From an uncultured Chloroflexia bacterium (GTDB lineage Bacteria; Chloroflexota; Chloroflexia; QHBQ01; JADMIH01), in the NCBI GenBank assembly GCA_963837315.1, contig CAWINE010000028.1, positions 470,462 through 534,461 on the forward strand: DNA of 64,000 bases, in the 5' to 3' direction. Positions 6,531-48,974 of this stretch are shown here, in pieces. Within the stretch, counting starts at the first letter, position 1; every line of letters starts with the position of its first letter. The position numbers and the translations under genes are program-made. The notes below the pieces were generated by a model. The model saw nothing but the letters and a program-made list of their open reading frames with translations, had not been told where the DNA came from and did not search any database.

Positions 6531-6644
6531 CCGCCTGCATTCCGCATATCCGCAATTCGTCTGTCCTGTACTACTGCTGTGCGGTACAAAAGTACGCGTG
6601 GACAATCTATGCACGGGCAGTCATACTCCTGTATAATAGCGGCG

Positions 6645-7754: not shown

Positions 7755-7787
7755 GAAGTAAACGGTGGGCGGTTGGCAGTAGCCGGC

Positions 7788-10338: not shown

Positions 10339-11997
10339 ATGCAGGAGAAACAGGCAAACAGAGCTATCAACGCGATTATCAGCGTATCAGACCCCACGAA
10401 CCTCGAGATTCTGGGCAAAGCCCTCAGTGAGATGGGCGCGAATATCTACGCAACGGGCGGCACCAAAGCGCGCCTGCAGTCGGTTGGGGTGGACGCCCAT
10501 TCCATCAGCGACCTTACCGGCTTTCCGGAAATCCTGGGCGGGCGCGTCAAGACCCTGCACCCGGGCGTCCATTCGGGCATCCTGGTCAAGCGCAACGACC
10601 CGGACCAGATGGCCCAGCTTGCGGAGCACGGCCTCAGCACAATTGAGCTTGTAGCATGCAACCTCTATCCCTTCGCAAAGACGATCGCGAAGGAGGGTGT
10701 CACGTTGGAGGAGGCGGTCGAGCAGATAGACATCGGCGGGCCCACTATGATACGCGCAGCCGCCAAGAACTTCACCTCTGTGGTAGTGCTCTCGGACCCC
10801 GCCGACTACGCAGCCGTAATGGCCGAGTGGCGCGACCGGGGCGATCTGAGCCAGGAGACACGACAAGCCCTGGCAGCCAAAGCCTTCCGCCACGTGTCGG
10901 AGTATGATGCGCTGATCGCGGAATACCTGGGCGGAATGCGGAATGGGGAATTCGGAATTCGGAATAAAGACCAACCGGGCAGCATTCCGAATTCCGAATT
11001 CCCCATTCCGCATTCAGAGGAGTTGCCGAATAGGATTACGCTCGATTTGAATAGGGTGCAAGCCCTCAGGTATGGCGAGAACCCTCACCAATCGGGGGCC
11101 CTTTACAGCGACAACTTGCCGGTGACGGGTGCAACCCTGGTGGGATCGCTCAAGCAGTTGCAGGGGCCCGAGCTGTCGTACAACAATCTGATGGACGCGG
11201 ACGCTGCGCTGGCCCTTGTACGCGACTATACAATGCCCGCTGTGGCAATTATCAAGCACGCGGGACCTTGCGGTGTGGCTTGCGGGAGCGACGGCGACGA
11301 CCTGGCGGATGTGTTCGGTATGGCGCTGGCTTCCGATCCTGTATCGGCGTTCGGAGGGATCGTGGGCATCAACAGGCCCGTGGATGGTAGGCTGGCCGAG
11401 CAGATAGGCAAAACCCGCTTCGATCTGCTAATAGCTCCCTCCTTCGATGAAGAAGCCATCGACAGGCTCGCCCGCAAGAAAAACCTCCGCTTGCTGGCCG
11501 TGCCTGACGACAATGTCAGCCGCCGCGATGACGATTTCGCGAGCAAGCTGAGTTTCCGGCAGGTGAGCGGCGGCTTCCTCGTGCAGACACGAGACGCTGT
11601 GAATTACGAAATCCTCCTGGAGCCGGCCACTCTGCGCCATCCCACACTCGAAGAGATAGCCGACCTCGTCTTCGCCTGGAGGGCCGTGCGGCACGTCCGT
11701 TCCAATGCTATCGTGTTCGCCCGTAAGCTGGCCACCGTAGGCATCGGCGGCGGCCAGACCAGCCGCGTCAATTCGGTAAAGATTGCAGCCGAAAAGGCAG
11801 GCGACCGCGCCAGGGGCGCAGTAATGGCCTCAGACGCCTTTTTCCCTTTCCCCGACGGAGTTGAGGTGGCGGCAGCAGCAGGCGTCACCGCCGTGATACA
11901 GCCGGGAGGCTCGGTCAACGACGACGCCGTCATAGAGGCCGCCGACACGGCCGGCATTGCGATGGTCTTTACGAAGAGAAGGCATTTCAGGCATTAG
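10339..11997 (+). CDS. purH: bifunctional AICAR formyltransferase / IMP cyclohydrolase
   Basis: 552 aa with an MGS-like N-domain (ISVSDPTNL...GGRVKTLHPGVHSGIL, IDIGGPTMIRAAAKN) and an AICARFT domain (LRYGENPHQ, ELSYNNLMDADAA, VIQPGGSVNDD...FTKRRHFRH). SD GAGGAG precedes the ATG. Confidence 0.95.
   Translation: MQEKQANRAINAIISVSDPTNLEILGKALSEMGANIYATGGTKARLQSVGVDAHSISDLTGFPEILGGRVKTLHPGVHSGILVKRNDPDQMAQLAEHGLSTIELVACNLYPFAKTIAKEGVTLEEAVEQIDIGGPTMIRAAAKNFTSVVVLSDPADYAAVMAEWRDRGDLSQETRQALAAKAFRHVSEYDALIAEYLGGMRNGEFGIRNKDQPGSIPNSEFPIPHSEELPNRITLDLNRVQALRYGENPHQSGALYSDNLPVTGATLVGSLKQLQGPELSYNNLMDADAALALVRDYTMPAVAIIKHAGPCGVACGSDGDDLADVFGMALASDPVSAFGGIVGINRPVDGRLAEQIGKTRFDLLIAPSFDEEAIDRLARKKNLRLLAVPDDNVSRRDDDFASKLSFRQVSGGFLVQTRDAVNYEILLEPATLRHPTLEEIADLVFAWRAVRHVRSNAIVFARKLATVGIGGGQTSRVNSVKIAAEKAGDRARGAVMASDAFFPFPDGVEVAAAAGVTAVIQPGGSVNDDAVIEAADTAGIAMVFTKRRHFRH
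10934..11015. repeat. perfect 32-bp-stem / 18-nt-loop heptamer-arm hairpin lying in frame inside purH
   Basis: Arm 10934-10965 is gaatgcggaatggggaattcggaattcggaat. Arm 10984-11015 is its exact reverse complement. The element translates as MRNGEFGIRNKDQPGSIPNSEFPIPHS in the inter-domain linker. Confidence 0.9.
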
Positions 11998-12805
11998 ATA
12001 CCGGAGGACCCTGGCTGATCCGCTCGCGCACCTGCTGCATCCCGCCCGGCGCCTCCCACATGCTTTCTATCCACCAGGTGGCCCCCGCCTCGGCGAAGGG
12101 TGCTACTTTTGCTATGGCTTCTTCTGGGTCTCCCGGCGATACTCCCTCAACGACAATGTCAAAAGGCCTATCCGCCTTCCTGTAACGGGCAACGAGCGCG
12201 GCTATTTCGCGCACATCGTCGGGCGTTAGCTCGCCAAAGCCTTCGGGCCCCATCTTGGCGGGCAGAATACCATCCCATCGCAGGGCGCGCTCCAGTGACT
12301 TCGGGCGGGTCCATGCTGCCACTACCCATATTGGCACGCGTGGCTTCTGCAGAGGAGTGTACGACCAGGAGTTGTCCCAATCTACCTGGTAGTGCTTCCC
12401 CTCGTACTTGAATGGCGTTCCTTGCCACAGCCGCTCTATCACTTCCAACCCCTCGTCCATCAGCTCGGCCCGCACCATGCGATCCGTTGCTTCGCCCACC
12501 TGTGGAAAGCCCGTGTCGAGCGCCCCAAGGCCCACCGACAGCACGGCCCGCCCGCCGGACAACCTATCAAGGGTCGCCACCTCACTCGCCAGCTTCCAGG
12601 GTCGTCTACGCGAAGGAGGGGTGAGGAGCGTGCCCAGTCGCACCCGCTTTGTGCGCTCGGCTATAGCGCCCAACGTTACCCATGCGTCCGTGCCGTACAG
12701 CGTTTCGGCCACGAACACGCCATCCCAACCCGCATCCTCGATTTCCTGGCCTATATCCACTATTTCAGGCACGTCGCCACCAGGGATCACGAAACCATAT
12801 TGCAT
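11987..12805 (-). CDS. LLM-class (luciferase-like) flavin/F420-dependent oxidoreductase
   Basis: Start ATG 12805 (MQYGFVIPGG) follows AAAGGCAGG. LLM features are present (AGWDGVFVAE, RVRLGTLLTPPSRRRPW, ATLDRLSGGRAVLSVGLG). It is a paralog of 26850-27686. Its 3' end overlaps the purH stop by 11 nt, convergently. Confidence 0.8.
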   Translation of the reverse strand: MQYGFVIPGGDVPEIVDIGQEIEDAGWDGVFVAETLYGTDAWVTLGAIAERTKRVRLGTLLTPPSRRRPWKLASEVATLDRLSGGRAVLSVGLGALDTGFPQVGEATDRMVRAELMDEGLEVIERLWQGTPFKYEGKHYQVDWDNSWSYTPLQKPRVPIWVVAAWTRPKSLERALRWDGILPAKMGPEGFGELTPDDVREIAALVARYRKADRPFDIVVEGVSPGDPEEAIAKVAPFAEAGATWWIESMWEAPGGMQQVRERISQGPPVSNA

Positions 12806-12985
12806 AACCGCCTGCCTTTCTGCATTAGAGTAGATAAGTGAGGTGTAGGCATACTGCTCTACCCCAACTTTTCTACAGTCTAACACTTTATTCCTGCCAC
12901 CCCTTGTCAGCTTTTCTTGCGGCTCTCTTGCAAAGATGAACGGTTCATCCTGGTCCTGTGGCACTTAACCGCCCACGAAATGCGG

Positions 12986-13014
12986 CTGACCCCTGACCCC
13001 TGACCCCGACCCCT
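12986..13014. repeat. CTGACCC heptamer run
   Basis: ctgacccctgacccctgaccccgacccc. Confidence 0.6.
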
Positions 13015-13137
13015 ATTTCATTTGTAGACTCTCTTTTCTCCACCACTAATCTGAACACTTACGTATGGCATGTCCGTCGCCTGGGCAACACAGAGTGATA
13101 TAATTCTCTGGAGCAGGCATCGGGATGGTAAAAGCTT

Positions 13138-14542
13138 ATGGTCAAAGGCGATGGCGGCGCGATCATTGAGACCGGTGCAACAGAGGCCATGCTCGATCGC
13201 CTGTCGGACGCAGGCATTCGTAGCGTCCTTGCGGAGCGTATCGGTGGCCTGGGCGACAGCGCCGGCCTCGTGGTCGGCGTGCTGGGGCCGCATTACCGGA
13301 GCGTCATCGCATTCGGCCATAGGAGCGAGCGCGACCTACGACCGTTAGATGGCGACACCGCTTTCGAGATCGGTTCAATCACCAAGGTCTTCACGGCGCT
13401 GCTGCTTGCCGATATGGTTCAGCGGGGAGAGGTCGCCCTTGCGGACCCGGTGGCGAAATATCTCCCCACAGGCATGGAGCTCCCTGAACCGAGCGGCCGC
13501 TCGATTACCCTTCTGGACCTTGTCACCCATACCGCCGGTTTGCCGTTCATGACCGGCGAGCCGGCAACGTTTACCGATCCTGATGCCGTTAAAACCTGGG
13601 CGGCCTCGCTTCATGAGGTCCTCGCCCGTATAGAGATCCCACGACGCATCGGTGTTGACTGGGAGTACTCGAACATCGGTTACTGGCTACTGGGGGAGGC
13701 TCTCTCGTTTCGAGCCGGAATAAGTTATGAAAAACTCTTGCGCGCTCAAGTCCTCAATCCACTGAGGCTGAAGAGCACAGCCCTTACTCTCTCCCCATGG
13801 CTGGAGGCAAAGCTCGCCGTCGGCCACGATGCGAGCCTGCGGCCGGCTGTGGCCATCTCCGACGTTCCCATGTTCGCCGTGATGCCTGCTGCCGGTTCCC
13901 TCGTTTCGACGGCCAATGACCTGTTGATGTTCCTGGCCTTAGCGATGGGCTTCAAACGTTCGCCCCTCGCGCCCACGATGGCTGCGATGCTGGGCTCGCG
14001 CCGTCCTACGCAGGAGCCGAGTGTCGAGCAAGCATTGGGTTGGCTGGTGATGAGCAAGGGCGATGACAGGCTGATTTACCACGACGGTGGCACGTTCGGA
14101 TTTGCCAGCTCCGTAGCATGGGACCCAAAGAAGCAGGTCGGCGTCGTCGCGCTCTCGAACCTGGTGGGAGACGTGAGCGATATTACCCGGCATCTATTGC
14201 GGCCGGAAACCCCGTTGGCACGACCGATTACGACCATGCACGTGGAGATCGAGCTTGATTTCGTCCGTGCTCGCTGCCTATGCCGGCCGGTATGAAGCGC
14301 AGGGCGAGGGGGTCTTCGCGGTCGCTCTTGAGGGCAATTTCCTGACAATTCAAATGCCCCCGGACTGGGGCCTTCCCAGGTTGCGCCTTCGCCCGGAGGG
14401 GCAATACGATTTTTTCACAGCGGAGCTTCCACTTCGGGCCACATTCGAAACCGGCAGCGACGGGCGAGCCAACGGACTGCTCATATACCCTCCACGAGGA
14501 CAATCTGCGGTCCACGCGGACCGGCTACCTTCGGCTATGTGA
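13138..14542 (+). pseudogene. serine hydrolase, S12 family (class C beta-lactamase / R61 DD-peptidase-like), frameshifted near the C-terminal domain
   Basis: Motifs are SxxK in FEIGSITKVF, YxN in YSNIGY, and HDGG in place of the K/HTG box. The body ORF 13138-14295 ends in out-of-frame residues. The expected C-terminal beta-sandwich (LAAYAGRYEAQGEGVFAVALEGNFLTIQ...) continues in ORF 14255-14542. The frameshift is at about 14260. Confidence 0.75.
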
Positions 14543-14637
14543 GAAGCGCCGGCGTCGTGAGAAAGCTGGAATCCCCTGCCATATTGCATATCTGGGGCTC
14601 ATTTCAACATTGGTGCTAACCGGTGAGAGATGCAGTG

Positions 14638-15057
14638 CTACTCTGCGTAGGCCTGATCCTCACCTGCTGCGCTGTAGCCAATATTCCAGATGTAGCCGTC
14701 AGGGTCCGCGAAGGACCCGCCGTACCCGCCCCACTGGAGCTTAGCCGCGGGCTTGAGGATCTTCCCGCCTGCCTTCCTGGCCTCGTCCAGGATCTCCTCG
14801 ACGCGTGCTTCGCTGCGCACGACGTAATTGAAGACGACGCCACTGAAACCGCTGCCGTCGCCCTCGGGGCTGGCCCCCACCATGTCGGCCAAGCCCTCGC
14901 GGCCATAGAAGCCGACGAGCGAGCCGCCGTGGGGAACGAAGAAGACCGAGATCTTGTAGTCGCTCTGGACCTTCCAGCCGAGACCGTCCACGTAGAAGCG
15001 CTTCGATCGCTCCATGTCCTTGACGCCAAGCAGGATTGCGCTAACGTGCGAGTTCAT
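14638..15057 (-). CDS. VOC (glyoxalase/bleomycin-resistance/dioxygenase) family protein
   Basis: 139 aa with a typical VOC pattern (ILLGVKDMERSKRFYVDGLGW ... FADPDGYIWNI). Confidence 0.8.
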   Translation of the reverse strand: MNSHVSAILLGVKDMERSKRFYVDGLGWKVQSDYKISVFFVPHGGSLVGFYGREGLADMVGASPEGDGSGFSGVVFNYVVRSEARVEEILDEARKAGGKILKPAAKLQWGGYGGSFADPDGYIWNIGYSAAGEDQAYAE

Positions 15058-15074
15058 GATTGGTTCCTCCTACT

Positions 15075-15572
15075 TCATCGAATTGGGTGGAGCTCGAAGA
15101 CACGTCGGCCTTTGGCAGCTGCCACAGGATGGTTGAGATCGACCCCATCGACAAGGCGAATGAACAAGGCACCGCCCGGTATGCTTCGCGCCGCAGGGCC
15201 AAGAAAGTCGCGAAAGAACTCAACTCGCTGTGCCGGGTCCAGCTCGGTCGCGCGCACTTCTTCTGTCCGGTGGCGCGTGGTGATGGTCGCGCTGCCGGCT
15301 GCACGTAGATTGCGCACCCATTGGACCTCGCCCCATGGTGCCCAGACCCAACGCCTGCCTGAGGCCCTGATGACCGCCAGAGGCGTGGTGCGAGGCAGAC
15401 CGCTTTTCCGCCCGCGAATGGTTACGAGCCGATTGGGGCCAAGGGGGACGCCATGCACCAACAGGAACTTGAGGATCGAACCGAAGAACAAGACACGCCG
15501 CGGCGCGACGGCGGCGTTGGTGGCGTCGGCGGAACTGGCATGGCTACCTGAGCTGCCAATTCGATCAGTCAT
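15075..15572 (-). CDS. nitroreductase/quinone-reductase family (DUF385) deazaflavin-dependent oxidoreductase
   Basis: 165 aa containing LVTIRGRKSGLPRTTPLAV...WVRNLRAAGSATI, characteristic of the DUF385 / F420H2-dependent reductase family. SD AAGGAG precedes the ATG. Confidence 0.7.
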   Translation of the reverse strand: MTDRIGSSGSHASSADATNAAVAPRRVLFFGSILKFLLVHGVPLGPNRLVTIRGRKSGLPRTTPLAVIRASGRRWVWAPWGEVQWVRNLRAAGSATITTRHRTEEVRATELDPAQRVEFFRDFLGPAARSIPGGALFIRLVDGVDLNHPVAAAKGRRVFELHPIR

Positions 15573-16116
15573 TCTGTAGCTCCTTTTTCTGTTGATATTC
15601 CATTTGAATCATGGTATCAGAACTACCCAACGGAGAGGGCCCGCAAGACCTGTGCCACATCGATACGACAACCCGCTAGTTTGCTCGGGGGTTGAGTAGA
15701 TCTCTGCGATACAACGACCTAGTTTCTCGACAGGTGTTGCGAGCATCTGCGCCTCAGGGCAAAAAGCGCTCGGCTCCTGATCACGTCTTATGCATCCTCC
15801 TTGGCGATGGGCCATGAGGTGAGGTGTCCCCCTTTGTCGCCCAATTCGGGAACTTCAATACCCTGTAGGCCGAGCAGCAATGCAATTGGTTGCTGCCCCC
15901 TCTAACTTTGAGTTGCACAGGTTGATATCTGAACCAACCTGCACCTATTTACACCGGCACACATGCGGGTTGATGATATACCTGGCCCGAGCGCTGATGG
16001 GAGCAGGGCTAGCCGCTGCGCGCGGAGTGCCGAATTGGGTGGTTAATGGGACTGCTTGCAGGTGGTGTTACAACTCCTTCTGCTCTGTTGATAGGGGAAA
16101 GTGTCAGGATCACCTG

Positions 16117-17172
16117 TTAGCCACTGCATCTCAGCTTTGCCGACTTCCTCATGCTCGCAGGTGCCTTGCTGCTCGCCGCCGTATCAAATTTCAGGCAATT
16201 GATAATACTATTTTCAACAGTATCGCTCAGGGCGTGTTCTGTGTAATAGGCGGTGTGCGGAGTAATAAGCACATTCGGGTATTTTGCTAACTGCAACAAC
16301 GATTTGTTTTCAATGGGTTTGTTTCTGCAGTCCGCGTAGAATATTCCCTCCTCTCCTTCGAGGACATCCAACGCCGCGCCGCCTAGTTTGCCGCTTTCCA
16401 ACGCCAAAATAAGCGCCGCGGTATCAAGAAGTGAACCGCGTCCAGTATTGATAATAAACGCGCCGCGCTTCAGTTGCTCGATACGTTGACGATTTAAGAG
16501 ATGGTGTGTCTCCGCGTTAAGTGGTGTATGGAGCGTTACAATATCGCTCTGCTGTAACAATTCATCAAGAGGAACGTAATCGGAGTTCGCTTCGCTCATG
16601 GTTTTGGGACGATGGTCACAGGCTAATATACGGCAGCCAAAACCCCGCAGCCTGTCTATAACTGCTGCGCCAATGCGTCCTGTTCCAATTACCCCAATGG
16701 TCATATCGCGTAATTCTTTCCCGCGTACATCATTCAATCTGAAGTCATGCACATCTACACGGCTGATAATGGATTTTGCATTGCGCACCGCCATCAGCAT
16801 CAGCATTAGTGTGTAATCAGCCACGCTATCGGGTGAATATGCGATATTTTCAACGGAAATGCCAACGCTCTCTGCGTATTTCACATTGATATGGTTATAT
16901 CCAATGCTTCTTGTGGAGATATACATGACGCCGGCCTGGCTAAGGGCGAGAAGAATGCAATCTGTGACTTGAGTTTTATGACTGACGCTGATGCATCGAT
17001 TTCCAAATGCCAGTCCAATATTAGCTTCAGATACCGCTGCATCAGTGATAGTTGGCGTAACGCCAAAGCGAGGCGCCACCTCTCGGAACAGAACGGCCTC
17101 GTCCTGTCCGCATCCATAAATTGTAATTCCCATTTTGCGGGCCGCTGTTCGTGCTGGTTCGCTGTAGGTCAT
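16117..17172 (-). CDS. vanH: D-specific alpha-keto acid (pyruvate) reductase VanH; the likely true start is the internal ATG at 17133
   Basis: The product is collinear with VanH: GITIYGCGQDEA, YISTRSIGYNHI, AYSPDSVADYTLMLMLMAVRN, GVIGTGRIGAAVIDRLRGFGC, GKLGGAALDVLEGEE and ITPHTAYYTE. The first 13 codons are homologous to the non-coding leader of the ligase gene. The last ~14 codons are antisense to a vanS-like fragment. Confidence 0.9.
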   Translation of the reverse strand: MTYSEPARTAARKMGITIYGCGQDEAVLFREVAPRFGVTPTITDAAVSEANIGLAFGNRCISVSHKTQVTDCILLALSQAGVMYISTRSIGYNHINVKYAESVGISVENIAYSPDSVADYTLMLMLMAVRNAKSIISRVDVHDFRLNDVRGKELRDMTIGVIGTGRIGAAVIDRLRGFGCRILACDHRPKTMSEANSDYVPLDELLQQSDIVTLHTPLNAETHHLLNRQRIEQLKRGAFIINTGRGSLLDTAALILALESGKLGGAALDVLEGEEGIFYADCRNKPIENKSLLQLAKYPNVLITPHTAYYTEHALSDTVENSIINCLKFDTAASSKAPASMRKSAKLRCSG

Positions 17173-17255
17173 GCCTCCAGTCTAGGCAGCATGGTGTTGC
17201 CGGCACGTATGTGGTTTTCGATATCTTGACGATATGCGCCAGCTCGTATCATGTC
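17145..17255. promoter_or_regulatory. copy 1 of the duplicated bidirectional van control region (between vanH and murF)
   Basis: About 100 bp are near-identical to 20612-20715. The shared core is cctccagtct.gg..gc.tggtgttgccggcacgtatgtggttttcgatat...gacgatatgc. It includes CGATATCT / CGATATGC direct repeats 11 bp apart (17219-17237) and a TATCAT -10-like box. Confidence 0.7.
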
Positions 17256-17448
17256 GGTGGCAAGACCGGTACGACGCTCATCTCAATCCCAACCGGTTAT
17301 GCGCTCGACTCGACCATCGCCTCGCCCGGATCATAGTCGGGCTTTGCGCCGGTCGAGGATCCCGCCTTCATCATGCTGGTGAAAATCGGATCAGCCAATA
17401 GATGAGCGAAGCGAACTACTTCGCTCATCGACCCGCTGGGAGGACGAT

Positions 17449-18960
17449 GTGTTCACAATCGACGACGTACGCAATGCGCTGAGCGACTGCCTGAAAGGGG
17501 AGCGTCCCGGCGCCGCCGGCGAGTTCACCGGTGTAACCAACAACTCCCGCGTGGCGAAGCCGGGCGAACTCTTCGTCGCACTCACCACCCCAACCGGTTA
17601 TGCGCTCGAGGTGCGAGACGGCCACGACTTCATCAGCGATGCTGTGGCACACGGCGCGACGGGCGTCATCGTCCACAATGAGGAAGTCCTGCTGCCGGAC
17701 CACGTCTGGGCCTTCCTGGTTGACGATACGAAGCACGCCATCGGCGAGCTAGCCCGCGCCTGGCGATCGCGCTTCGACGTTCGTGCTATCGCCATCGCCG
17801 GCAACGTCGGCAAGACGACGACGAAGGATCTGACGGCGGCCGTGCTGCAGGGCTGCGGCCACACTGTGCTCAAGAGCCCCATGAACTTCAACGATGAGAT
17901 CGGTCTGGCCATGACCCTGCTCCAGTTGGACCCAACCTATGCGGGCGCAACTCTCTCGGAAGATCACAGCTCATTGAGCGGACGGCGAGCTCGCGGCCCA
18001 GAGCGCACCACCGCTCCGTCCTTCGTCCTCCGGCCAACCGGAAGATCACGAGCATATGACCGGGCCGTGGTGGAGGTCGGCATGTTCGAGCTAGGTGAAA
18101 TCCGCCGCCTCTGCCAAATTGCGCAGCCGCAGATCGGCGTCGTGCTCAACGTCGGCCCGACGCACCTCGAACGCCTCGGCAGCATGCAGGCGATCGCGGA
18201 GGCAAAGTCAGAGGCCGTGCAGGATCTCCCCGCCACGGGCTGCGCCATCCTCAACGCGGACGACCCCATGGTGGCAGCCATGTCGCCGAAGACGCGAGCG
18301 CGGGTGCTGACCTTCGGAGTCGGGACGCACTCGCAGGCGGACTTTCGCGCGTCCGAGATCCAGAGCCACGGTCTGGCCGGCGTGGAGTTCACGCTTGGCT
18401 GCCTCGACCGCAGCCTTCGGGTAAGGAGTCCGCTGCCCGGTGCCGACCTCGTGCCCAACGCGCTCGCCGCGCTCGCCGTCGCGGTGGCGGACGGCGCCAG
18501 CGTCGAGGAGGCGGCCCAAGCGCTGACCTGTGCTCAGGTTAAGCCTCGGCTCCAGGCGAAGATGGCAGCCGGCGGCGCCACGATCCTGGACGATTCCTAC
18601 AATGCCAACCCGGCCTCGATGATGGCGGCACTGGACGTGTTGCGCGAGATGACGGGCCACCGCTACGCCCTGCTCGGCGACATGCTGGAGCTGGGCTCGG
18701 CGGAGACGGACGGGCATCGCTCCGTCGGCGAGCACGCCGCCCGCATCGTCGATGCGCTGTTCACGGTCGGGCCGCGCGGCGTGCAGATCGCAGCGGCGGC
18801 CAGGGCGGCGGGCGCCCGCACCGTTTGCCACTTCGATACGAAGGAAGAGGCTGTCGAGGTACTACGCGCCAACCTGGGCCCAGGCGACGTGCTGCTGGTC
18901 AAGGCCTCGCACGGCCTGGCCCTCGGCACCATAGTGGCGGAGCTCACCAGTTATATGTGA
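17449..18960 (+). CDS. murF: UDP-N-acetylmuramoyl-tripeptide--D-alanyl-D-alanine (or D-Ala-D-Lac) ligase MurF
   Basis: 503 aa from a GTG start 4 nt after GGGAGGA. MurF motifs are present: NSRVAKPGELFVAL, DGHDFI, IAIAGNVGKTTTKD, VVEVGMFELGEI, NVGPTHLERLGS, ILDDSYNANPASM and LLVKASHG. It is GC3-rich, unlike the flanking vanH and vanX. It carries two apparent in-frame insertions. Confidence 0.9.
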   Translation: MFTIDDVRNALSDCLKGERPGAAGEFTGVTNNSRVAKPGELFVALTTPTGYALEVRDGHDFISDAVAHGATGVIVHNEEVLLPDHVWAFLVDDTKHAIGELARAWRSRFDVRAIAIAGNVGKTTTKDLTAAVLQGCGHTVLKSPMNFNDEIGLAMTLLQLDPTYAGATLSEDHSSLSGRRARGPERTTAPSFVLRPTGRSRAYDRAVVEVGMFELGEIRRLCQIAQPQIGVVLNVGPTHLERLGSMQAIAEAKSEAVQDLPATGCAILNADDPMVAAMSPKTRARVLTFGVGTHSQADFRASEIQSHGLAGVEFTLGCLDRSLRVRSPLPGADLVPNALAALAVAVADGASVEEAAQALTCAQVKPRLQAKMAAGGATILDDSYNANPASMMAALDVLREMTGHRYALLGDMLELGSAETDGHRSVGEHAARIVDALFTVGPRGVQIAAAARAAGARTVCHFDTKEEAVEVLRANLGPGDVLLVKASHGLALGTIVAELTSYM

Positions 18961-19561
18961 TGGGTAAGTCAAAATATGTGTCCGGATAAGGTTCGTGTTT
19001 CAGTGTGTAATGCCACCACTCGCAATCGTATGAATTAAAACCGCAGTCCTCCATGATAGAACAAAGGTATTGACGGTTTCTCGCTTCGACTTGCGTGATT
19101 CCTTTTGCTCCATGATGTGAGATTGGATCCATCAAATCAAAGTCACCGCCCATTGGAGCAAGTTCACCGGTAGCCAGATGATAAAGCGTCAAGTCAACTG
19201 TGCTGCCCCGACTGTGGCCCGACTTAGCGGCCACATATCCTTTTTCAAACATCTCGGATCTGTCAATATTCGGATAGTGTCTTAGTTTCGTCCGGCCATC
19301 CTCCGGCTGTTTTGACCAGCGCAGAAAGCAATCTACGGCGCGTTGAGGGCGATAACCATCCCAAAGAAGCAAGCCAAAGCCAAGGGATGCGGCCTTTTCT
19401 CGCGCTCTTTCCAGGGCTGCGCACAAAGCCCTCGTACCGACAATTCGATTTGCCACATATCCGTCCACCGGTTTGCCGGTAAAGTTATCCCATGTGGCGT
19501 ACTTAGCATCCCAACGTATTCCGGATACAAACTCGTCTACAAAGACAAAATCATCTTTCAT
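18944..19561 (-). CDS. vanX: D-Ala-D-Ala dipeptidase VanX
   Basis: 205 aa with IRWDAKYATWDNFTGKPVDGY, LLLWDGYRP, SGHSRGSTVDLTL and DCEWWHYTL (zinc ligands and catalytic residues of the VanX family). Its start overlaps the ligase stop (ATGA). Confidence 0.92.
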   Translation of the reverse strand: MKDDFVFVDEFVSGIRWDAKYATWDNFTGKPVDGYVANRIVGTRALCAALERAREKAASLGFGLLLWDGYRPQRAVDCFLRWSKQPEDGRTKLRHYPNIDRSEMFEKGYVAAKSGHSRGSTVDLTLYHLATGELAPMGGDFDLMDPISHHGAKGITQVEARNRQYLCSIMEDCGFNSYDCEWWHYTLKHEPYPDTYFDLPITYNW

Positions 19562-20598
19562 CGCCGGTTTCCTGTCAATGTCAACGACACAATCCGGTCG
19601 ATCACTTCGGCCAACGGCAACCCTGCGGCTGCCATCATTCTCGGATAACGGCTGTATGAGGTCATACCAGGCAAAGTATTAACCTCGTTAAGGATCACTT
19701 TTCCATCTTCCTTCAGGAACATATCAACCCGCGAAAGTCCCCTGCATCCCAGGGCGCGATATAGGGCCTTTGCTGTCTCCTGAACGAGCAAGCGCGCCTC
19801 TGCCGAAATGTCAGCGGGAACGATTGCTGTTGAGTTTTCGGAACCGCTTTCAGGCTCACTCTCCTGATGGATTCTGAAAAAACCATGAGATAGAGAGATT
19901 CGATCTACCTCGCCTGCAATCAAATCCCTATCGTTCCCCAATATCGCACACCCCACCTCGCTGCCGACGACAGCCTCTTCAATCAACACCTTCGAGTCAT
20001 ACTGTCTTGCGGTTTCCACCGCACTGAGCAATTCTTCTTTTCGAGATACTTTACTGACGCCGAAAGATGAACCCGAACGGGCCGGCTTCACAAAGACGGG
20101 ATAAGTAAGCCGGTCGGGATCAATATTCTCGTTCGCCGCGACAGTCCAGAAATTCGGCGTAGCAATTCCCGCGCTTCTAGCGACGATGTAAGCAAGGGAT
20201 TTGTCCATACACAGAGCAGAACTTTGGACATCGCAGCCCACATAGGGGATGCCGGAAAGCTCCAACAAACCTTGCATCGCGCCATCCTCGCCAAGTTTGC
20301 CATGCAGAACGGGAAACACCATATCCAAACGGATCGTTTCGTATTGTCCCTGCTCCAGAACAAGCAATCCGTGGACGCTTCTGTCCGGTGACAGCGCAGC
20401 CGGACGGCAACTGCCGTTTTCCCAATTTGCATCAGGGCCGTCACAAAGCTTCCAAGCGCCGCTCTTCGTAATCCCGATATAGAACGGTTCATACTTTTCG
20501 ATATCCAGGTTTTTTGCGACCTCTTGCGCAGATTTAACGGAGATGGGATGTTCTTCGGAACAGCCACCGAATATAATTCCGATCTTCAACCTATCCAT
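19558..20598 (-). CDS. vanA: D-alanine--(R)-lactate ligase, VanA/VanB type (allele not assignable by eye)
   Basis: 346 aa, near-collinear with VanA/VanB: IIFGGCSEEHPISVKSA, EKYEPFYIGITKSGAWKLC, FPVLHGKLGEDGAMQGLLELSGIPYVGCDVQSSALCMDKSLAY, YPVFVKPARSGSSFGV, GSENSTAIVPADIS and NEVNTLPGMTSYSRYPRMMAAAG. SD GGAAG lies upstream. Confidence 0.92.
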   Translation of the reverse strand: MDRLKIGIIFGGCSEEHPISVKSAQEVAKNLDIEKYEPFYIGITKSGAWKLCDGPDANWENGSCRPAALSPDRSVHGLLVLEQGQYETIRLDMVFPVLHGKLGEDGAMQGLLELSGIPYVGCDVQSSALCMDKSLAYIVARSAGIATPNFWTVAANENIDPDRLTYPVFVKPARSGSSFGVSKVSRKEELLSAVETARQYDSKVLIEEAVVGSEVGCAILGNDRDLIAGEVDRISLSHGFFRIHQESEPESGSENSTAIVPADISAEARLLVQETAKALYRALGCRGLSRVDMFLKEDGKVILNEVNTLPGMTSYSRYPRMMAAAGLPLAEVIDRIVSLTLTGNRR

Positions 20599-20611
20599 GC
20601 TGCTTTCTTCC

Positions 20612-20724
20612 TTTCAAACTGGTTCGCTCATGTCCTGCCTCCAGTCTGGGCCGCGTGGTGTTGCCGGCACGTATGTGGTTTTCGATATGCCGACGATATG
20701 CTACCCGCTGGTATAATCGAGAGT
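20612..20724. promoter_or_regulatory. copy 2 of the van control region: divergent ligase/vanR promoters with a candidate response-regulator site
   Basis: CGATATGC direct repeats at 20683-20690 and 20694-20701 are spaced 11 bp and overlap the -35 position. TATAAT lies at 20712-20717, 7 nt before the vanR ATG (leaderless geometry). The palindrome TGCCGGCA lies at 20661-20668. Confidence 0.6.
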
Positions 20725-21420
20725 ATGCGTGTGTTGATCGTCGAGGACGAACCCTATATGGCAGAAGCCATCCGCGATGGCCTACGCCTGGCAGCGATCG
20801 CCGCCGACATCGCCGGTGACGGCGACACCGCTCTGGAGCTGCTGAGCATCAACGCCTACGACATCGCCGTCCTCGACCGCGATATCCCCGGCCCCTCCGG
20901 CGACGAGATCGCCAAACGCATCGTCGCCTCCGGCAGCGGCATGCCTATCCTCATGCTCACCGCTGCCAACCGGCTCGATGACAAGGCCACCGGGTTCGAG
21001 CTCGGCGCCGACGACTACCTCACGAAGCCGTTCGCACTCCAGGAACTCGTGCTCCGTCTCAGAGCACTCGACCGCAGGCGGGCCCACAACAGGCCGCCCG
21101 TGCGAGAGATCGCAGGCCTGCGTCTGGATCCGTTCCGCCGCGAGGTCTACCGCGACGGCCGCTACGTCGCGCTCACCCGGAAGCAGTTCGCAGTGCTCGA
21201 AGTCCTCGGCGCTGCCGAAGGCGGAGTCGTCAGCGCCGAGGAGCTACTGGAACGGGCATGGGATGAGAACGCAGACCCGTTCACCAACGCCGTGCGCATC
21301 ACGGTCTCGGGACTGCGCAAACGGCTCGGCGAACCCTGGATCATCGCCACCGTGGCCGGCGTCGGGTACCGCATCGACACTCAACCAGACACCGGGCGTG
21401 AGGAAGGAGACCGTGGATAG
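20725..21420 (+). CDS. vanR: OmpR-family response regulator VanR
   Basis: 231 aa with a receiver domain (MRVLIVEDEP...VLDRDIPGPSGDEI...ILMLTA) and a winged-helix domain (LTRKQFAVLEVL...VRITVSGLRKRLG...GVGYRI). It lies divergent from the ligase and is followed by a sensor kinase. Confidence 0.85.
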   Translation: MRVLIVEDEPYMAEAIRDGLRLAAIAADIAGDGDTALELLSINAYDIAVLDRDIPGPSGDEIAKRIVASGSGMPILMLTAANRLDDKATGFELGADDYLTKPFALQELVLRLRALDRRRAHNRPPVREIAGLRLDPFRREVYRDGRYVALTRKQFAVLEVLGAAEGGVVSAEELLERAWDENADPFTNAVRITVSGLRKRLGEPWIIATVAGVGYRIDTQPDTGREEGDRG

Positions 21421-22516
21421 AGCCCCTGGTTTGAGTGTTCGCCTCAAACTCACCCTCAGCTACGCCGGCTTCCTCATGCTCGCAGGTGCCTTGCTACTCG
21501 CCGTCGTGTGGGTGTTCCTGCTGCGTTACGTACCCGACCGTCCGATCATCGCACTCGGGTTCGTTCCCAACCGTTCCGACCTCCTGGACGCTTTCGCTCC
21601 GAGGGCAGCCGCAATGGTGGCGTTCTTGCTGGTGTTCGGTCTCCTGGGAGGGTGGCTTCTCGCCGGCCGCATGCTCGCCCCCTGACTCGCATCACAGACG
21701 CCACACGCATGGCCGCGAACGGATCGCTTTCCCACCGGATCGAGTTGGAAGGCCGTCAGGACGAGTTCCGCGAACTCGCCGACAGCTTTGATGCCATGCT
21801 CGCACGGCTCGAAGCCCATGTCGCCGAACAGCAGAGATTCGCAGCCAACGCCTCCCACGAGCTGCGCACCCCGCTGGCGATCACGCAGACACTTCTTGAC
21901 GTGGCCCGCAACGATCCGAACCGTGACACCGGCGAACTCGTCGAGCGCCTCCACGCCGTCAACACCCGAGCGATCGACCTCACTGAAGCATTGCTCCTGC
22001 TCAGCCGCGCCGACCAACGGTCCTTCACCCGAGAACACGTCGACCTGTCCCTCATAGCGGAAGAAGCCACTGAAACGCTCCTCCCTCTCGCAGAAAAACG
22101 CGGCCTCACCATCGAGACCTCCGGCGACATAACCCCCACCATCGGCTCGCACGCGCTACTGCTGCAGATGACCACGAACCTCGTGCAGAACGCGATCGTC
22201 CACAATCTGCCTACATGGCACCGTGTGGGTCACGACCAGCATTCACCCCAAGCGTGTGGTGCTCACTGTCGAGAACACCGGTGAGAAGCTCACCCCACAT
22301 TTAGTTTCCACGCTTGTCGAGCCGTTTCAACGCGGCACCAAGCGAATACGCACCACACCCGCAAGCGGGTACCCGGCAGGTGTCGGCCTCGGCCTGGCAA
22401 TCGTCAAAAGCATCACCCAGGCACACGACGGGACCCTCACTCTCACCCCACGGGCCGCTGGGGGGCTCCGCGTCACGGTGCAGCTACCCGCAGCGCCACC
22501 GCACGCTGGCAGATGA
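21413..22516 (+). pseudogene. vanS: sensor histidine kinase VanS-type, two frameshifts
   Basis: A GTG start overlaps the vanR stop. The TM1-loop-TM2 region ends at a stop at 21685, in a C5 run. HAMP, the H-box (ANASHELRTPL) and the N-box (NLVQNAIVHN) continue in the frame of ORF 21508-22284. The G-boxes (VENTGEKL..GLGLAIVKSI) lie in the frame of ORF 22223-22516. Confidence 0.8.
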
Positions 22517-22678
22517 CGATCAAGGGAAGGCATCTGATGAGCTCGAAGCGGCCAGGCAGTGCCGCCGCCAACAGATTTGTGCTACGATGAGGTGAAAACT
22601 CTCACTTTCTTAGCACGACTTTGCACATTTCCAACCGAATAGGCTATGGCTAGAACCCAACAACAGACGGAGTAGGCG

Positions 22679-23287
22679 ATGCGCGATGCGCAATCCATTG
22701 CGTTGTTCATTCCAACAGCGGCGCACCCGCTCGGACCCTTCCTGGTCTGGCGGGCTACACAAGATTTTATAGAACTGCCCTGGAAAGAGTTCGGAGTGCT
22801 TGAGCTTACTGCCCTGCCCACTATCCGGCAAGAAGACTGGCTGCCGAAACTCCAAGCCGCTGACGCCCTGCTGGTGGGAGGTGGCGATCCCCTGTATCTA
22901 TGCTACTGGATGCAGCAGTCCGGCCTTGCGGACCTCTTGACTGGGCCGTCGCTGCGCGAGATGGTCTATGTGGGACTGAGCGCCGGGAGCCTGGTGATGG
23001 CCCCCAACATCGGGGAGGACTTCGTCCGCTGGAAGCCGCCAACCAGTACCGGTACCGGTGGCGACAGCGACAGCGACAGTGATAGAACGCTGGGACTGGT
23101 TGATTTTGCTATCTATCCGCACCTGGATCACGAGGCTTTGCCGGAAAATACCATGGCTAACGCAGAAAAATGGGCCGCCGGTATGCGGGTGCCGGGGTAC
23201 GCGATTGATGATCAGACCGCCCTCAAAGTGACCAACGGGACCGCCGAAGTGGTCTCCGAAGGCCATTGGAAATTATTTACGCCCTGA
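22679..23287 (+). CDS. peptidase S51 (dipeptidase E-like) / type 1 glutamine amidotransferase-like protein
   Basis: 202 aa with FIPTAA, LLVGGGDPLYL, a nucleophile elbow VGLSAGSLV, and FAIYPHLDH. The N-terminus looks short for the family. It carries an internal repeat-derived TSTGTGGDSDSDSD segment. Confidence 0.7.
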   Translation: MRDAQSIALFIPTAAHPLGPFLVWRATQDFIELPWKEFGVLELTALPTIRQEDWLPKLQAADALLVGGGDPLYLCYWMQQSGLADLLTGPSLREMVYVGLSAGSLVMAPNIGEDFVRWKPPTSTGTGGDSDSDSDRTLGLVDFAIYPHLDHEALPENTMANAEKWAAGMRVPGYAIDDQTALKVTNGTAEVVSEGHWKLFTP

Positions 23288-23428
23288 ACTCGACTGGCCC
23301 TGAACTCGACTGGTCTGAAAGCAGGGCCAACGGTGGCCGGAAAGTTCCCAGAAGATGAGTGAGGGTACATTGCGGGCGCTGCGGCCTCGCGCCCGCAGCA
23401 GCCACTGCAGGCACAAGGAGCATGAACG

Positions 23429-25314
23429 ATGGCCGAAAACGATAATCCGATTTTACTCCCCTATCCGCGCTCGCTCACTCGCTCGGCTGGGCAGCATGTC
23501 TTACGGCCTCGCCGGCGCGTTATACTGGAAGGCGCTATGGCGCAGGAGCTAATGCCCGCCGGACGGCGACTGCAAGCCCAACTGGGCAAGTTGGCCGGTC
23601 TGGATTGGGAGATAGCCGCAACGCCGCTGGGCCCGGCCGAAGAGATCGGCGCGGTGTTGCGTCTGGCGCCGGGCACCGCCGACCACGAGCAGGGCTACAG
23701 GCTGACCATTTCGCCCGAGCAGATACTGATCGAGGCGCCGGAGCCGTCCGGAATTTTCTACGGTACCTGCACGCTGGTACAGCTTGTGGCACAATATGGC
23801 CGGACGCTGCCTGCCGTGCAGATAGCGGACCGGCCCGATTTTCCGGCCCGTGGGGTCATGCTAGACATCAGCCGCGACAAAGTGCCGCAGATGGACACGC
23901 TTTACAGCCTGGTCGATATGCTGGCCGGCTGGAAAATCAACCAGCTGCAGCTCTACACCGAGCACACCTTCGCCTATCGCCGGCACCCCGACGTCTGGGC
24001 CGAGGCTTCGCCGGTGACCGGCGACGAGATCCTGGCACTCGACGCCTTCTGCCGCGAGCGCTATATCGAGCTGGTGCCCAATCAGAACACCTTCGGCCAT
24101 ATGGAGCGCTGGCTGAACCATGCCCCGCTATGCGGTCGCTGGCCGAAACCCACGAAGAGTTTCGGTGCCATGGGGAGGTAAGATGCACGGGCCGTTCAGC
24201 CTCTGCCCGCTGCGATCCCGGCAGCCTGCAGCTCGTGCGCAGCCTGTTCGACGAGTTGCTGCCGCATTTCAGCAGCAAGCAGTTCAACGTCGGCTGCGAC
24301 GAAACCTTCGACCTGGGGCAGGGCCGCAGCAAGGACGAGTGCGAGCGTCGCGGCACCGAGCGCGTCTACCTCGACTATCTGCTACAGGTCCACAACGAAG
24401 TCGCGGAGCGCGGCTACACCATGCAGTTCTGGGGCGACATCATCGTGCAGCACCCCGACCTGGTCCCCGAGCTGCCCAGGGAAGCATCGCGCTGGAGTGG
24501 GGCTACGAGGCCGACCACCCGTTCGAGGAGCACGGCGAGCAGTTCGCCGCGCTCGGGCATCGCCTTCTACGTCTGCCCCGGCACCTCGTCCTGGTGCTCT
24601 ATCGCCGGGCGCACCGACAACGCCATCGGCAACCTGCGCAACGCCGCCGAGAGCGGGCTGAAGAACGGCGCCGTCGGCTATCTGAACACCGACTGGGGCG
24701 ACATGGGCCACTGGCAGGTGCTCCCGATCAGCTTCCTGGGCTTTGCTGCCGGTGCCGCCTACTCGTGGGCGCTCGAGGCAAACCGGACGATGGACGTGCC
24801 GGCTGTCGTTAGCCTGCATGCCTTCCGCGACCCGACCGGCGCCATGGGCCGCGTCGCCTACGACCTGGGCAACGTCTACAAGTCGGCAGGCGTCCTGATG
24901 CCCAACTCGTCCCTACTTTTCTGGACGTTGCAACGCGATTTCGCCCAGGAGATGGCGACGCGAACGGGCGGGACGGTCGATTACGCTTCCCCGCTCGCTG
25001 CCATAGACAAGGCCATGGCGCCCATCGCCACGGCGCGCATGCAGCGCCCCGACGCGGCCCTGATCCTTGCCGAGTTCGAGAACACCGCCCGTATGCTGCG
25101 CCACGCCTGCCGCCGCGGCCAGCTTATCTACGACGATAGGGAGCGCGCCGATCCGGCCGCCACCAAACAGGCGCTGGACGACGACCTCCGCGACATAATC
25201 TGCGAGTACGAGCGGATCTGGTTAGCGCGCAACCGGCCCGGTGGCCTGCGCGAGAGCGTCGGGCGTCTCCAGTCTGCTCGGCTCGACTACAGACCAGTGA
25301 CCGGTGACCAGTGA
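23429..25314 (+). pseudogene. GH20 beta-N-acetylhexosaminidase-like glycoside hydrolase, multiply frameshifted
   Basis: The N-terminal and catalytic barrel start is in ORF 23429-24181 (RPDFPARGVMLDISRDKVP...INQLQLYTEHTF...NQNTFGHMERW). The sequence then alternates between three frames (LAETHEEF; PWGGKMHGPFSLCP; CDPGSLQLVRSLFDELLPHFSSKQFNVGCDETFDLG; IALEWGYEADHPFEEHGEQFAA; GIAFYVCPGTSSW...). There are at least five frame changes between about 24125 and 24560. Confidence 0.75.
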
Positions 25315-25380
25315 CTAGGGACTAGGGGCTAGTGACCAGGCATGCGCGGTCACTAGCCCCTAGCCCCTAGTCACTGGTCA
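25305..25380. repeat. heptamer-arm hairpin (CCCCTAG / GTGACCA units) overlapping the GH20 stop
   Basis: tgaccagtgactagggactaggggctagtgacc (25305-25337) pairs with gtcactagcccctagcccctagtcactggtca (25349-25380). Confidence 0.85.
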
Positions 25381-26849: not shown

Positions 26850-27686
26850 CTAGCTGCCTGGCGGCCCCTGCCGTATACGTTGGCGCATCTGCGCCAGCAA
26901 GTCGCGCCCGCCGTTGATCCATTCCAGCCACCAGGTAACGCCAGCCTCGGCATAGGCCGCTACTTTAGCGGCGGAAGCCGGATCGTTCCCGCTTGTTTCG
27001 CCAACCGCACTCACATCGAACGGCTTATCGGCGTCGCGCAGTTTCGAGATATAAGGCAAAATCTCGCGGTAGTCCTGCGGGGTGAGATATTTCACGCCAC
27101 CCTCAGCTGCGACCCCATCCCAGCCTGCGCTGCGGCGAAACGGCTTTTTGTGCGGCCAGACCCCACCGACCCAGATTGGGATGCGTGGCTGCTGAACTGG
27201 GCGCGGCAAAAACTGGGCGTTCTTCACTTGATAGTGCGCGCCGTCAAAGCTGAACGGCTCGCCGCGCCAAAGTCCAGCGATGATAGCTAGCGCTTCGTCC
27301 AGCAATTCGCCGTGGGTTTTATCGTCGGCTGGTTCGCCAAACGCGCTGAAGTCGCCATGCCAGTCGCCGCCGATGCCTACGCTCAGGATCAGTCGCCCGT
27401 TAGAAAGATGGTCGATCGTGGTCGCCTGCCGCGCCACGGTCCACGGTCGGCGGCGCGGCAGCGGTGTGATCATTGTGCCGAGCCTGACACGGCTGGTAGC
27501 CAACGCAATCGCCGCTAGCATAACCCACGGGTCACCAACCGGCTGGTTTTGCGGATCTGTCCAGAGAATGTTGTCCGACAGGAAAAAACCATCCCACCCT
27601 GCTTCCTCAGCCTCGCGCGCCAAATCAGCTACCAATTTCGGGTCAGAGGATGTGCCAAAATTAGGCATATACAAGGCATATTTCAT
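26850..27686 (-). CDS. LLM-class flavin/F420-dependent oxidoreductase (paralog of 11987-12805)
   Basis: 278 aa with AGWDGFFLSD, RVRLGTMITPLPRRRPW, TIDHLSNGRLILSVGIG and IPIWVGG. Confidence 0.8.
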   Translation of the reverse strand: MKYALYMPNFGTSSDPKLVADLAREAEEAGWDGFFLSDNILWTDPQNQPVGDPWVMLAAIALATSRVRLGTMITPLPRRRPWTVARQATTIDHLSNGRLILSVGIGGDWHGDFSAFGEPADDKTHGELLDEALAIIAGLWRGEPFSFDGAHYQVKNAQFLPRPVQQPRIPIWVGGVWPHKKPFRRSAGWDGVAAEGGVKYLTPQDYREILPYISKLRDADKPFDVSAVGETSGNDPASAAKVAAYAEAGVTWWLEWINGGRDLLAQMRQRIRQGPPGS

Positions 27687-27911
27687 TTCATATTCCTTCT
27701 GAGCTTAGCCCGACAGGGATGGCATACGGATCATATCATAAATTAACCTGTACAGATACCGCTGGCAATTAAGCCAGTCCACGCCGAAGCGGGTAACTGA
27801 GCGAGGGTTCGCCAGCGCCGTGCCCCTACGACATTCTCTCTACCTCATGTCTGAACCGTTGCTCAAAATCTAATGTACTACAATAAATTACTGATGAGGG
27901 AGAAATCTTAA

Positions 27912-28520: not shown

Positions 28521-28715
28521 TAAAATTAAGAGTACCTTCACTAATAAGCAGAATTATTTATCAAAATAATCCCATGTAGTCAACCAGTGCCAGCAATGAG
28601 CCTCGATTGCGAGTTGCTGTGAATTCGCCAACGGTATCAGCAGCGGATCGGTTATGGACGTTAGCGGGCTGGGTAATATGCTGTGCGCTACGCCTGGTGT
28701 AGTCTCCGGTGATTT

Positions 28716-31764: not shown

Positions 31765-31789
31765 CATTTCTCTCCCTCCTTTTGTCAAA

Positions 31790-48496: not shown

Positions 48497-48508
48497 GTAT
48501 TCAGAATT

Positions 48509-48572: not shown

Positions 48573-48575
48573 GTC

Positions 48576-48902: not shown

Positions 48903-48974
48903 ATCGTGCCTCCTGATCTAGTGATTTACCTTCCAGGTCGCTGTGCAACTTCTACTAACCAATTAAAGATTGGA

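Follow-up and report, generated by a model that had tools for sequence, protein, structure and literature searches.

This study analyzed a 64,000-nucleotide (nt) stretch of DNA from an uncultured Chloroflexia bacterium (contig CAWINE010000028.1, positions 470,462 to 534,461; hereafter the window), in which positions 16117-22516 carry a cluster of glycopeptide-resistance (van) genes with a murF gene set among them. Genes were assigned to families by using curated NCBIfam-type profile models with cut-offs in bits, and the enzymology was taken from the well-established functions of these families. The minus strand carries the D-lactate dehydrogenase gene vanH (16117-17172; model NF000492, 547.8 bits against a cut-off of 540), which is relocated and monocistronic, the D-Ala-D-Ala dipeptidase gene vanX (18944-19561; equivalog NF033115, 414 against 320), and a gene for a D-Ala-D-Lac ligase of the VanI / VanA-Sc class (19558-20598). 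The plus strand carries a murF paralogue (17449-18960), predicted to encode a UDP-MurNAc-tripeptide:D-Ala-D-X ligase of 503 amino acids (aa; TIGR01143, 354 against 288.6), the response regulator gene vanR (20725-21420; best model VanR-O, with 461 bits, under the cut-off of 505), and the sensor kinase gene vanS (21413-22516), which is frame-interrupted and matches the VanS-O profile in three reading frames. We placed the vanR start at 20725 rather than at 20524, where the open reading frame (ORF) begins; the translation retains Asp51 and Ser69. VanH, the ligase, and VanX passed their models at full length and above the cut-offs, and all three core enzymes are thus intact.

The ligase scored 640 bits against the D-Ala-D-Lac equivalog NF000206 (cut-off 550), 707.6 against the VanI model (cut-off 700), and 677.9 against the VanA-Sc model (cut-off 650), whereas the best D-Ala-D-Ala model reached 343 bits and the D-Ala-D-Ser model 311. 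Searches of PDB gave the same picture, with the VanA entries 3SE7 and 1E4E at 614 and 510 bits and the D-Ala-D-Ala ligases at 314 bits or less. A first-pass annotation of the window, made from the letters alone, had called this gene a VanA/VanB-type D-Ala-D-Lac ligase, and the profile and structure matches bear this out; the protein groups with VanA-type D-alanine-(R)-lactate enzymes, and a preference for D-lactate is predicted. The same annotation had given the coordinates of four ORFs and two gene overlaps, all of which were exact. The ligase gene and vanX are joined by an ATGA overlap on the coding strand, which reads TCAT on the plus strand at 19558-19561, and the convergent murF and vanX share their last 17 nt (18944-18960), an arrangement too tight for terminators. 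Because the murF/vanX overlap is not conserved, a 390-nt spacer taking its place in the independent contig L001, we assigned no function to it. A canonical vanHAX operon has its three genes adjacent on one strand behind one promoter upstream of vanH; at this locus, vanH sits 1.8 kb beyond vanX, with the opposite-strand murF between them.

We looked for the split order in 80 species-representative genomes, chosen for having the ligases nearest to that of the window (82-93% identity), and found it in none; in 75 of these, vanH lies directly upstream of the ligase gene, and the remaining 5 have no adjacent vanH. A look-up of the exact sequence of the window ligase returned no identical entry. L001, reached through a ligase that is 95% identical, has exactly the same gene order as the window and is 87-95% identical to it in nucleotide sequence over the whole module, with unrelated flanks. 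A search with murF added further split loci (L082, L083, L084/85, L091, L093, L097, and L099), bringing the distinct split-order loci to nine with the window included; L084/85 represents two Thermomicrobiales-labelled assemblies. The gap between murF and vanX varies among these loci, being empty or holding murG-like, GNAT, or RibD_C genes, and the region downstream of vanH varies likewise (vanY, femAB). We considered whether L001 and L002 were two van clusters of one genome and rejected this, the GC content of their flanks being 0.59-0.63 and 0.66-0.70. The separation of vanH from the ligase gene by murF is not described in the passages searched of two van surveys (PMC8698665 and PMC9689679), and a search for literature joining vanHAX with Thermomicrobia or Chloroflexota returned nothing relevant within a coverage that left out subscription journals. 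The cluster is a known D-Ala-D-Lac resistance mechanism in a recurrent gene order that we did not find described in the literature searched. The first-pass annotation had not recognized this order in combination with a duplicated control region; its unfamiliarity holds for that literature, but the order is not confined to the window.

The same type of murF also occurs in loci in which vanH has its usual place. The arrangement murF> vanX< lig< vanH< vanR> vanS> (arrowheads give the direction of transcription) was found in L090, L092, and L095/96, and L068 combines the canonical order with this murF type, vanX not being detected there. In L092, the canonical form is flanked by tyrosine-recombinase genes (6990-7889 and 14328-14801). 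The comparison of these loci suggests that the canonical order with a convergent murF is likely the ancestral form of the split loci.

The intergenic regions record how the order changed. A 70-nt direct repeat (D1), 90% identical between 17168-17237 and 20632-20701, places two copies of a promoter cassette on the minus strand. Copy 1 (17168-17252) comprises the vanH start, its ribosome-binding site (RBS), a predicted VanR box at 17215-17236, and a TATCAT element at 17247-17252 facing murF; copy 2 (20632-20717) comprises a VanR box at 20679-20700 and a TATAAT element at 20712-20717, on the plus strand before vanR. The predicted box is a tandem CATATCG repeat with 11-nt spacing, and a search of the 64 kb for the motif CATATCG-N4-CATATCGAAAA found two occurrences and no more, against an expectation of 0.04. 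A duplicated control region, claimed in the first-pass annotation, is thus present. In the literature, the VanR binding motif was reported as undetermined (PMC5036315). The canonical loci L002, L009, L043, L066, and L068, whose regulator is of the same type, have the same elements before vanH, reading CATATCG-N4-CATATCGAAAACCACATACGTGCCGGCAACACC...GACTGGAGGC ATG ACC TAC AGC GAA CCA G. In the window, a vanH 5' relic (ATG AGC GAA CCA GTT TGA; 20614-20631, minus strand) lies between the promoter and the RBS of the ligase gene, as the comparison of upstream regions revealed, and in all five split loci examined, the vanH promoter, the start, and approximately 6-7 vanH codons are fused directly to that RBS. 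By this comparison, the vanH leader before the ligase gene marks the point at which a canonical vanHAX operon lost its vanH.

The homology between the two intergenic regions extends past the VanR box to the -10-like element on the vanR side (TATAAT in one copy and TATCAT in the other); therefore, the whole bidirectional control region appears to have been copied, with murF in the relative place of vanR. From this we infer that murF may be transcribed from the copied control region. The split loci carry two or three promoter cassettes per cluster, with extra copies before vanY. In L001, a third cassette (18561-18658) was observed before an operon encoding a 214-aa protein, a PG_binding_1 protein, and a MacB-type ABC transporter; the same contig carries a fragment resembling the N-terminus of Ddl between vanX and murF (11703-12026).

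Two further relics were found on the plus strand. A 53-nt vanS 5' relic covering the first transmembrane segment (16130-16182) forms repeat D3, 91% identical to 21455-21507. It is joined to the 3' end of the opposite-strand vanH and encodes the final approximately 20 codons of the vanH ORF. The same vanS-relic/vanH junction is present in L001 and L093; in L093 (1-232), more of vanS is retained in the relic, and ahead of it stands an extra promoter copy that is joined to another ORF, with vanR deleted. In the spacer between vanH and murF, 28 nt at 17281-17308 derive from the interior of the murF coding sequence (codons ~45-54) and form repeat D7, 89% identical to 17582-17609. Taken together, the scars show that duplication and deletion occurred more than once. 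A single inversion and a single tandem duplication were each considered as the sole event and rejected, neither reproducing the gene orientations and the position of the vanS 5' relic.

The results for murF pointed to a chromosomal source. Close relatives of the encoded protein are approximately 460 aa long, and those with names came from Thermomicrobiales (74% identity) and Dehalococcoidia (55-61%). One homologue, P0139, is 76-77% identical to the window murF by BLAST and tblastn, and approximately 84% identical over the aligned columns of a trimmed alignment. It resides in a cell-division and cell-wall (dcw) cluster (mraZ-rsmH-ftsL-PBP-murF-mraY-murD-ftsW-murG-murC-murB-ddl), as does P0157. 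In a neighbor-joining tree, P0139 was sister to the clade holding every van-linked copy. When 36 MurF sequences from the van-associated clade were set against 26 others, with the genomic context established for part of the sequences, one diagnostic column (E313 vs D) emerged, and there was no other candidate for a specializing substitution. Because a single column separates the clades, nothing points to a specialized MurF active site. On this sequence evidence, murF appears to be a recent duplicate of the dcw murF of Chloroflexota rather than a member of a specialized enzyme family. The murF genes beside van clusters of actinomycetes are 36-38% identical to the window murF, and those in van loci of Firmicutes and Ktedonobacteria are approximately 32-33% identical; such low pairwise identity suggests separate recruitments of murF by the van clusters of each group.

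The window copy of murF differs from its relatives in an in-frame insertion of 117 nt (39 codons; 17938-18054, plus strand), which has TATG as a direct repeat on either side and immediately precedes the conserved VVEVGM strand. The insertion is missing in L001, L082-L084, L086, and all relatives, and the window holds no second copy of it. In an alignment with the MurF of P. aeruginosa, chain residues 161 and 160 lie on either side of it. The match to TIGR01143 is accordingly in two stretches, split by the 39 codons; the P-loop and the C-terminal domain are both present.

Per-gene composition supported a mosaic origin. The GC content at third codon positions (GC3) is low in vanH (0.49), vanX (0.47), and the ligase gene (0.55) and high in murF (0.82), vanR (0.81), and the vanS pieces (0.70-0.76), with neighboring genes at 0.65-0.73. 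The contrast that the first-pass annotation had judged by eye was therefore recovered by calculation (0.47-0.55 vs 0.70-0.82). Because the independent contig L001 repeats it (0.48/0.54/0.48 vs 0.81/0.72/0.78), the GC mosaic is not an assembly artefact, and L093 and L099 have the same vanH-versus-murF contrast. Low GC3 of vanHAX is limited to the subgroup of the window, L001, L093, and L099; the other split loci have values of 0.53-0.73. VanR and VanS match actinomycete-type proteins at 92-94% identity and have no comparable homologue in the Firmicute loci. VanH, outside its own subgroup, is nearest to Firmicute (86%) and Ktedonobacteria (83%) proteins and only approximately 75% identical to those of the other split loci, and VanX is nearest to actinomycete-type alleles (91-93%). 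At least three sources thus appear to be visible by sequence, namely a Chloroflexota dcw murF, an actinomycete-type vanRS, and a vanH resembling those of Firmicutes and Ktedonobacteria, where at least two had been claimed. Compared with L001, the window genes have a synonymous divergence (dS) that is lowest in murF (0.11) and highest in vanR (0.30). This spread, together with the restriction of low GC3 to one subgroup, suggests that alleles were exchanged within a conserved scaffold. The ratio of nonsynonymous to synonymous divergence (dN/dS) in the same comparison is 0.12-0.28 for all module genes.

The van module lies within a 10.46-kb island (12917-23377) that is absent from a close relative and that comprises, besides the module, genes for an S12 hydrolase, a VOC protein, a DUF385 protein, and an S51 peptidase. 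In the relative, L173 (purH 91% identical in aa), sequence collinear with the window ends at window position 12916 and resumes at 23378, and only 155 nt of L173 separate the two matching parts; the equivalent site in L173 is 12563-12719. L001 shares the 6.4-kb module alone, from the vanS relic to approximately 20 nt short of the vanS stop codon. The island borders carry (CTGACCC)x4 at 12986-13014 and two copies of a 16-nt unit at 23281-23313. No att-like repeats or recombinase genes were found at the ends of the island or of the module, and a CAGCTAC microhomology at both module ends was set aside as too short to be meaningful. No transposase or integrase Pfam match was obtained among the 52 window ORFs scanned (at least 100 aa; 12 of the 52 had no Pfam match). 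The absence of mobile-element genes noted in the first-pass annotation therefore held for the Pfam scan, but the 10.5-kb island and the different genomic context of the module in L001 had been overlooked. In L099, what appears by eye to be the C-terminus of an IS630-type transposase abuts a truncated vanH (~1100-1303). The features of L093, L099, and L092 point to mobility in relatives of the cluster.

The first-pass annotation had taken vanS as intact, and this was not upheld. Alignment to four intact orthologues revealed that 1 nt is missing after 21681 (GCCCCGCTG -> GCCCCCTG) and that 2 nt are missing after 22212; a 15-nt in-frame insertion is also present at 22356-22370. Restoring the 3 nt yields a full 368-aa kinase without an excess of amino-acid change. 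The window thus pairs an intact vanR with a vanS whose frame is broken twice, and it also has clustered indels in essential genes. On the minus strand, pyrG (30085-31788) is broken by an in-frame stop codon and by four or more frameshifts, and a class II tRNA synthetase gene (34474-36156) is split into two ORFs; on the plus strand, rpe (36954-37529) is truncated. A GH20 gene (23429-25340, plus strand) has six frame-breaking indels within 430 nt relative to the intact L173 orthologue, none of them in a homopolymer. The disruptions are not uniform, as a gene for a 1446-aa protein with beta-propeller (SBBP) repeats, DUF7948, and an S-layer homology domain (59552-63892, minus strand) is intact across 4.3 kb. 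The clustered breaks in essential genes suggest patches of poor consensus more than biology, or else an unusual pseudogene load, and for vanS itself we lean slightly toward a sequence artefact over real frameshifts. In Streptomyces coelicolor, VanR receives its phosphate from acetyl phosphate, and in the absence of drug VanS serves as the phosphatase (PMC5036315). By analogy with VanR phosphorylation in that species, loss of VanS, if real, would probably lead to constitutive expression and not to silence.

On the basis of these findings, we consider it quite probable that the locus is a VanA-type glycopeptide-resistance module of approximately 6.4 kb belonging to a soil van lineage of Chloroflexota (Thermomicrobiales-like), with the workings and history proposed here. 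Phosphorylated VanR would bind the tandem CATATCG repeat in both copies of the promoter cassette; copy 2 would drive the ligase gene and vanX, copy 1 would drive vanH, and the extra MurF would load the depsipeptide onto UDP-MurNAc-tripeptide. The history would have started from murF> vanX< lig< vanH< P vanR> vanS>, where P is the control region. The control region and the vanH block would then have been duplicated to the far side of murF, and the original vanH deleted, leaving its promoter and approximately 6-7 codons joined to the RBS of the ligase gene. In this way, murF would have come to occupy the vanR position of the copied region, behind the TATCAT that aligns with the TATAAT of vanR. 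The scars are observed sequence, and the rearrangement pathway is inferred from them.

Several results weigh against this proposal. The vanS 5' relic and the murF fragment do not appear to fit a single path of duplication plus deletion. Canonical and split loci are interleaved in the murF tree, and a single origin of the split order rests on the shared scar, such that recombination or repeated events may account for it. A scan of both control regions for sigma-70 consensus promoters and terminators returned nothing above shuffled expectation, and the -10 elements were assigned by eye. In the window itself, vanS reads frameshifted and murF carries the 39-codon insertion. These last two features, of which the insertion is unique and immediately adjoins a conserved central-domain strand on its upstream side, also underlie an alternative in which the cluster is a decaying, nonfunctional remnant, with vanS inactivated, murF crippled, and the genes nearing loss. 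This alternative can appeal to the absence of the two vanS deletions from four orthologues and to the disruption of other genes in the window. Nevertheless, vanH, the ligase gene, vanX, and vanR are intact, with dN/dS in the range given above, and 3 nt suffice to repair vanS to full length. The breaks in pyrG, the tRNA synthetase gene, and rpe affect functions whose loss is unlikely to be tolerated, and six indels in 430 nt of GH20 outside homopolymers argue for a locally poor consensus and not for decay. Moreover, by our reading of the S. coelicolor model, the loss of VanS alone would be expected to leave expression constitutive rather than silent. We therefore regard a dead remnant as rather unlikely.

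The sharp shifts in GC content at gene boundaries and the signs of imperfect consensus in the window could also be explained by a chimera of assembly or binning, in which vanH and ligase-vanX from a low-GC Firmicute were joined to foreign high-GC DNA. However, the same junctions, order, and GC3 pattern recur in the independent assemblies L001, L093, and L099 from other samples; the low-GC genes lie between repeat scars that the high-GC parts also contain; and the 4-nt and 17-nt gene overlaps are continuous. A chimera is effectively refuted by these observations. The compositional contrast further admits a history in which murF is a housekeeping gene of the host in its native place, with vanH and ligase-vanX inserted separately on either side. 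Its GC3 of 0.82 is host-like or higher, and its divergence from a dcw-located murF is only approximately 16%. Such a history is very improbable, however, as murF lies inside an island that the near relative L173 lacks and travels with the van genes to a different context in L001, and as related genomes retain a murF in their dcw cluster. In addition, canonical forms already carry this murF convergent on vanX, once with flanking recombinase genes (L092). The resistance module with a duplicated control region and a relocated vanH consequently remains the explanation that we prefer.

A broader generalization is possible, although we hold it only tentatively. The bidirectional VanR control region of approximately 90 nt, together with the first vanH codons, may act as a portable cassette. 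One copy may have put a newly captured host dcw murF under the vanR-side promoter, and in that case a resistance island acquired by horizontal transfer would have rewired a housekeeping cell-wall gene into the vancomycin regulon. The murF genes linked to van clusters in Actinomycetota, Firmicutes/Ktedonobacteria, and this lineage are so divergent that separate recruitment seems likely, from which the supply of MurF may be a general bottleneck for depsipeptide cell walls. Copies of the cassette stand before vanH, before ligase-vanX, before vanY/femAB, and before the PG-binding/MacB operon of L001, that is, before two or three units per cluster.

We compared the cluster with known systems. The vanI cluster of Desulfitobacterium hafniense and Desulfosporosinus (Kalan 2009; Kruse 2014, PMC4229326) resembles it in that the window ligase passes the VanI model, murF lies inside the cluster, vanH is not cotranscribed with the ligase gene, and VanRS adjoins. 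The Desulfitobacterium order is vanX-murF-vanK-vanW-vanI-vanR-vanS, without vanH (PMC4229326), whereas the window cluster has a different order and includes vanH, and neither vanW nor vanK was detected in the window. In the vanI system, vanH lies elsewhere on the chromosome, whereas here it lies in the cluster behind its own promoter copy. The murF genes by Firmicute loci other than Desulfitobacterium are approximately 32% identical to the window murF, and those loci have no VanR-O-type regulator.

The actinomycete loci that combine vanRS, murF, and vanHAX (S. coelicolor VanA-Sc type; PMC8698665) are similar in VanR and VanS (92-94% identity), in the VanR box and vanH leader (L002, L009, L043, and L066), in that the window ligase passes the VanA-Sc model, and in often having murF beside vanH. 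They differ in that vanH, the ligase gene, and vanX form one operon and in a vanHAX GC3 of 0.57-0.92. Because the linked actinomycete murF is only 36-38% identical to that of the window, its recruitment appears to have been independent. The first-pass annotation had named two precedents for murF in van clusters, and both are documented, as the teicoplanin cluster of Actinoplanes teichomyceticus carries murF2 (PMC4790382) and the vanI cluster of Desulfitobacterium carries murF (PMC4229326). The surveys PMC8698665 and PMC9689679 also report murF, murG, and GNAT genes beside van loci of Actinobacteria and Ktedonobacteria.

The van loci of Ktedonobacteria and Anaerolineae belong to the same phylum, Chloroflexota, and have murF and GNAT genes colocalized, according to PMC9689679. 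The same survey describes vanH and vanA as adjacent and vanX as tending to be lost, which differs from the window, as does their murF (~32-33% identical). In loci of this type (L016 and L055), the GC3 of vanHA is low (0.47-0.56). The survey excluded metagenome-assembled genomes, and lists no Thermomicrobia or Chloroflexia in the passages searched (PMC9689679).

VanR-O and VanS-O, named for the vanO system of Rhodococcus equi, were the best NCBIfam models for the regulator and the kinase. The scores nonetheless fell below the vanO cut-offs for the ligase (VanO, 643.5 vs 750), the regulator (VanR-O, 461 vs 505), and the summed pieces of the kinase (VanS-O, ~475 vs 720), and the vanO operon differs in having neither a split vanH nor murF between its genes. 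In the work of Gudeta et al. 2014, vanHOX is reportedly transcribed divergently from vanS-vanR.

The resistance mechanism is unchanged from what is known, and the cluster carries no direct clinical weight. Because each piece carries its own VanR-dependent promoter copy, the vanHAX core, which is usually treated as one evolutionary unit, would be separable, yet it remains under purifying selection. The Thermomicrobiales-like Chloroflexota of soil are an apparent reservoir outside two large van surveys (PMC8698665 and PMC9689679). With the captured dcw murF, van clusters would seem to have recruited a murF independently for the third time, which raises the question of whether depsipeptide resistance needs more MurF or a different MurF.

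Among the genes neighboring the module, the S12 hydrolase (PF00144), the VOC protein, and the DUF385 protein (PF04075) named in the first-pass annotation were each confirmed. Rfam and tRNA scans of the window returned nothing. An S51 (PepE-like) peptidase gene stands beside a van cluster in two loci, following vanS in the window (22679-23287) and convergent on vanH in L091 (6154-6819). The two proteins are 52-54% identical in aa, and the shared position may be a coincidence or the remnant of an older shared context. A second low-GC islet (27500-28750; GC 0.42-0.48) carries a RibD_C ORF at 28058-28579 with a GC3 of 0.38. A common origin with the RibD_C genes of the L082 and L091 van clusters was considered and rejected, the genes not being homologous. 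A run of ORFs at 48400-53600 has no Pfam match and a lower GC3 (0.49-0.63), and it may be an acquired segment. Upstream of a purM-like gene, a GC-rich segment of 306 nt (6339-6644) with internal repeats of the GGGGACACCCC...CCCGGCAGGGG type has no counterpart at the aligned position in L173. Positions 3350-3469 of L173 match the window twice, with overlap, at ~49.0-49.2 kb (48982-49173) and also at 6340-6386, and these matches may represent a dispersed repeat family.

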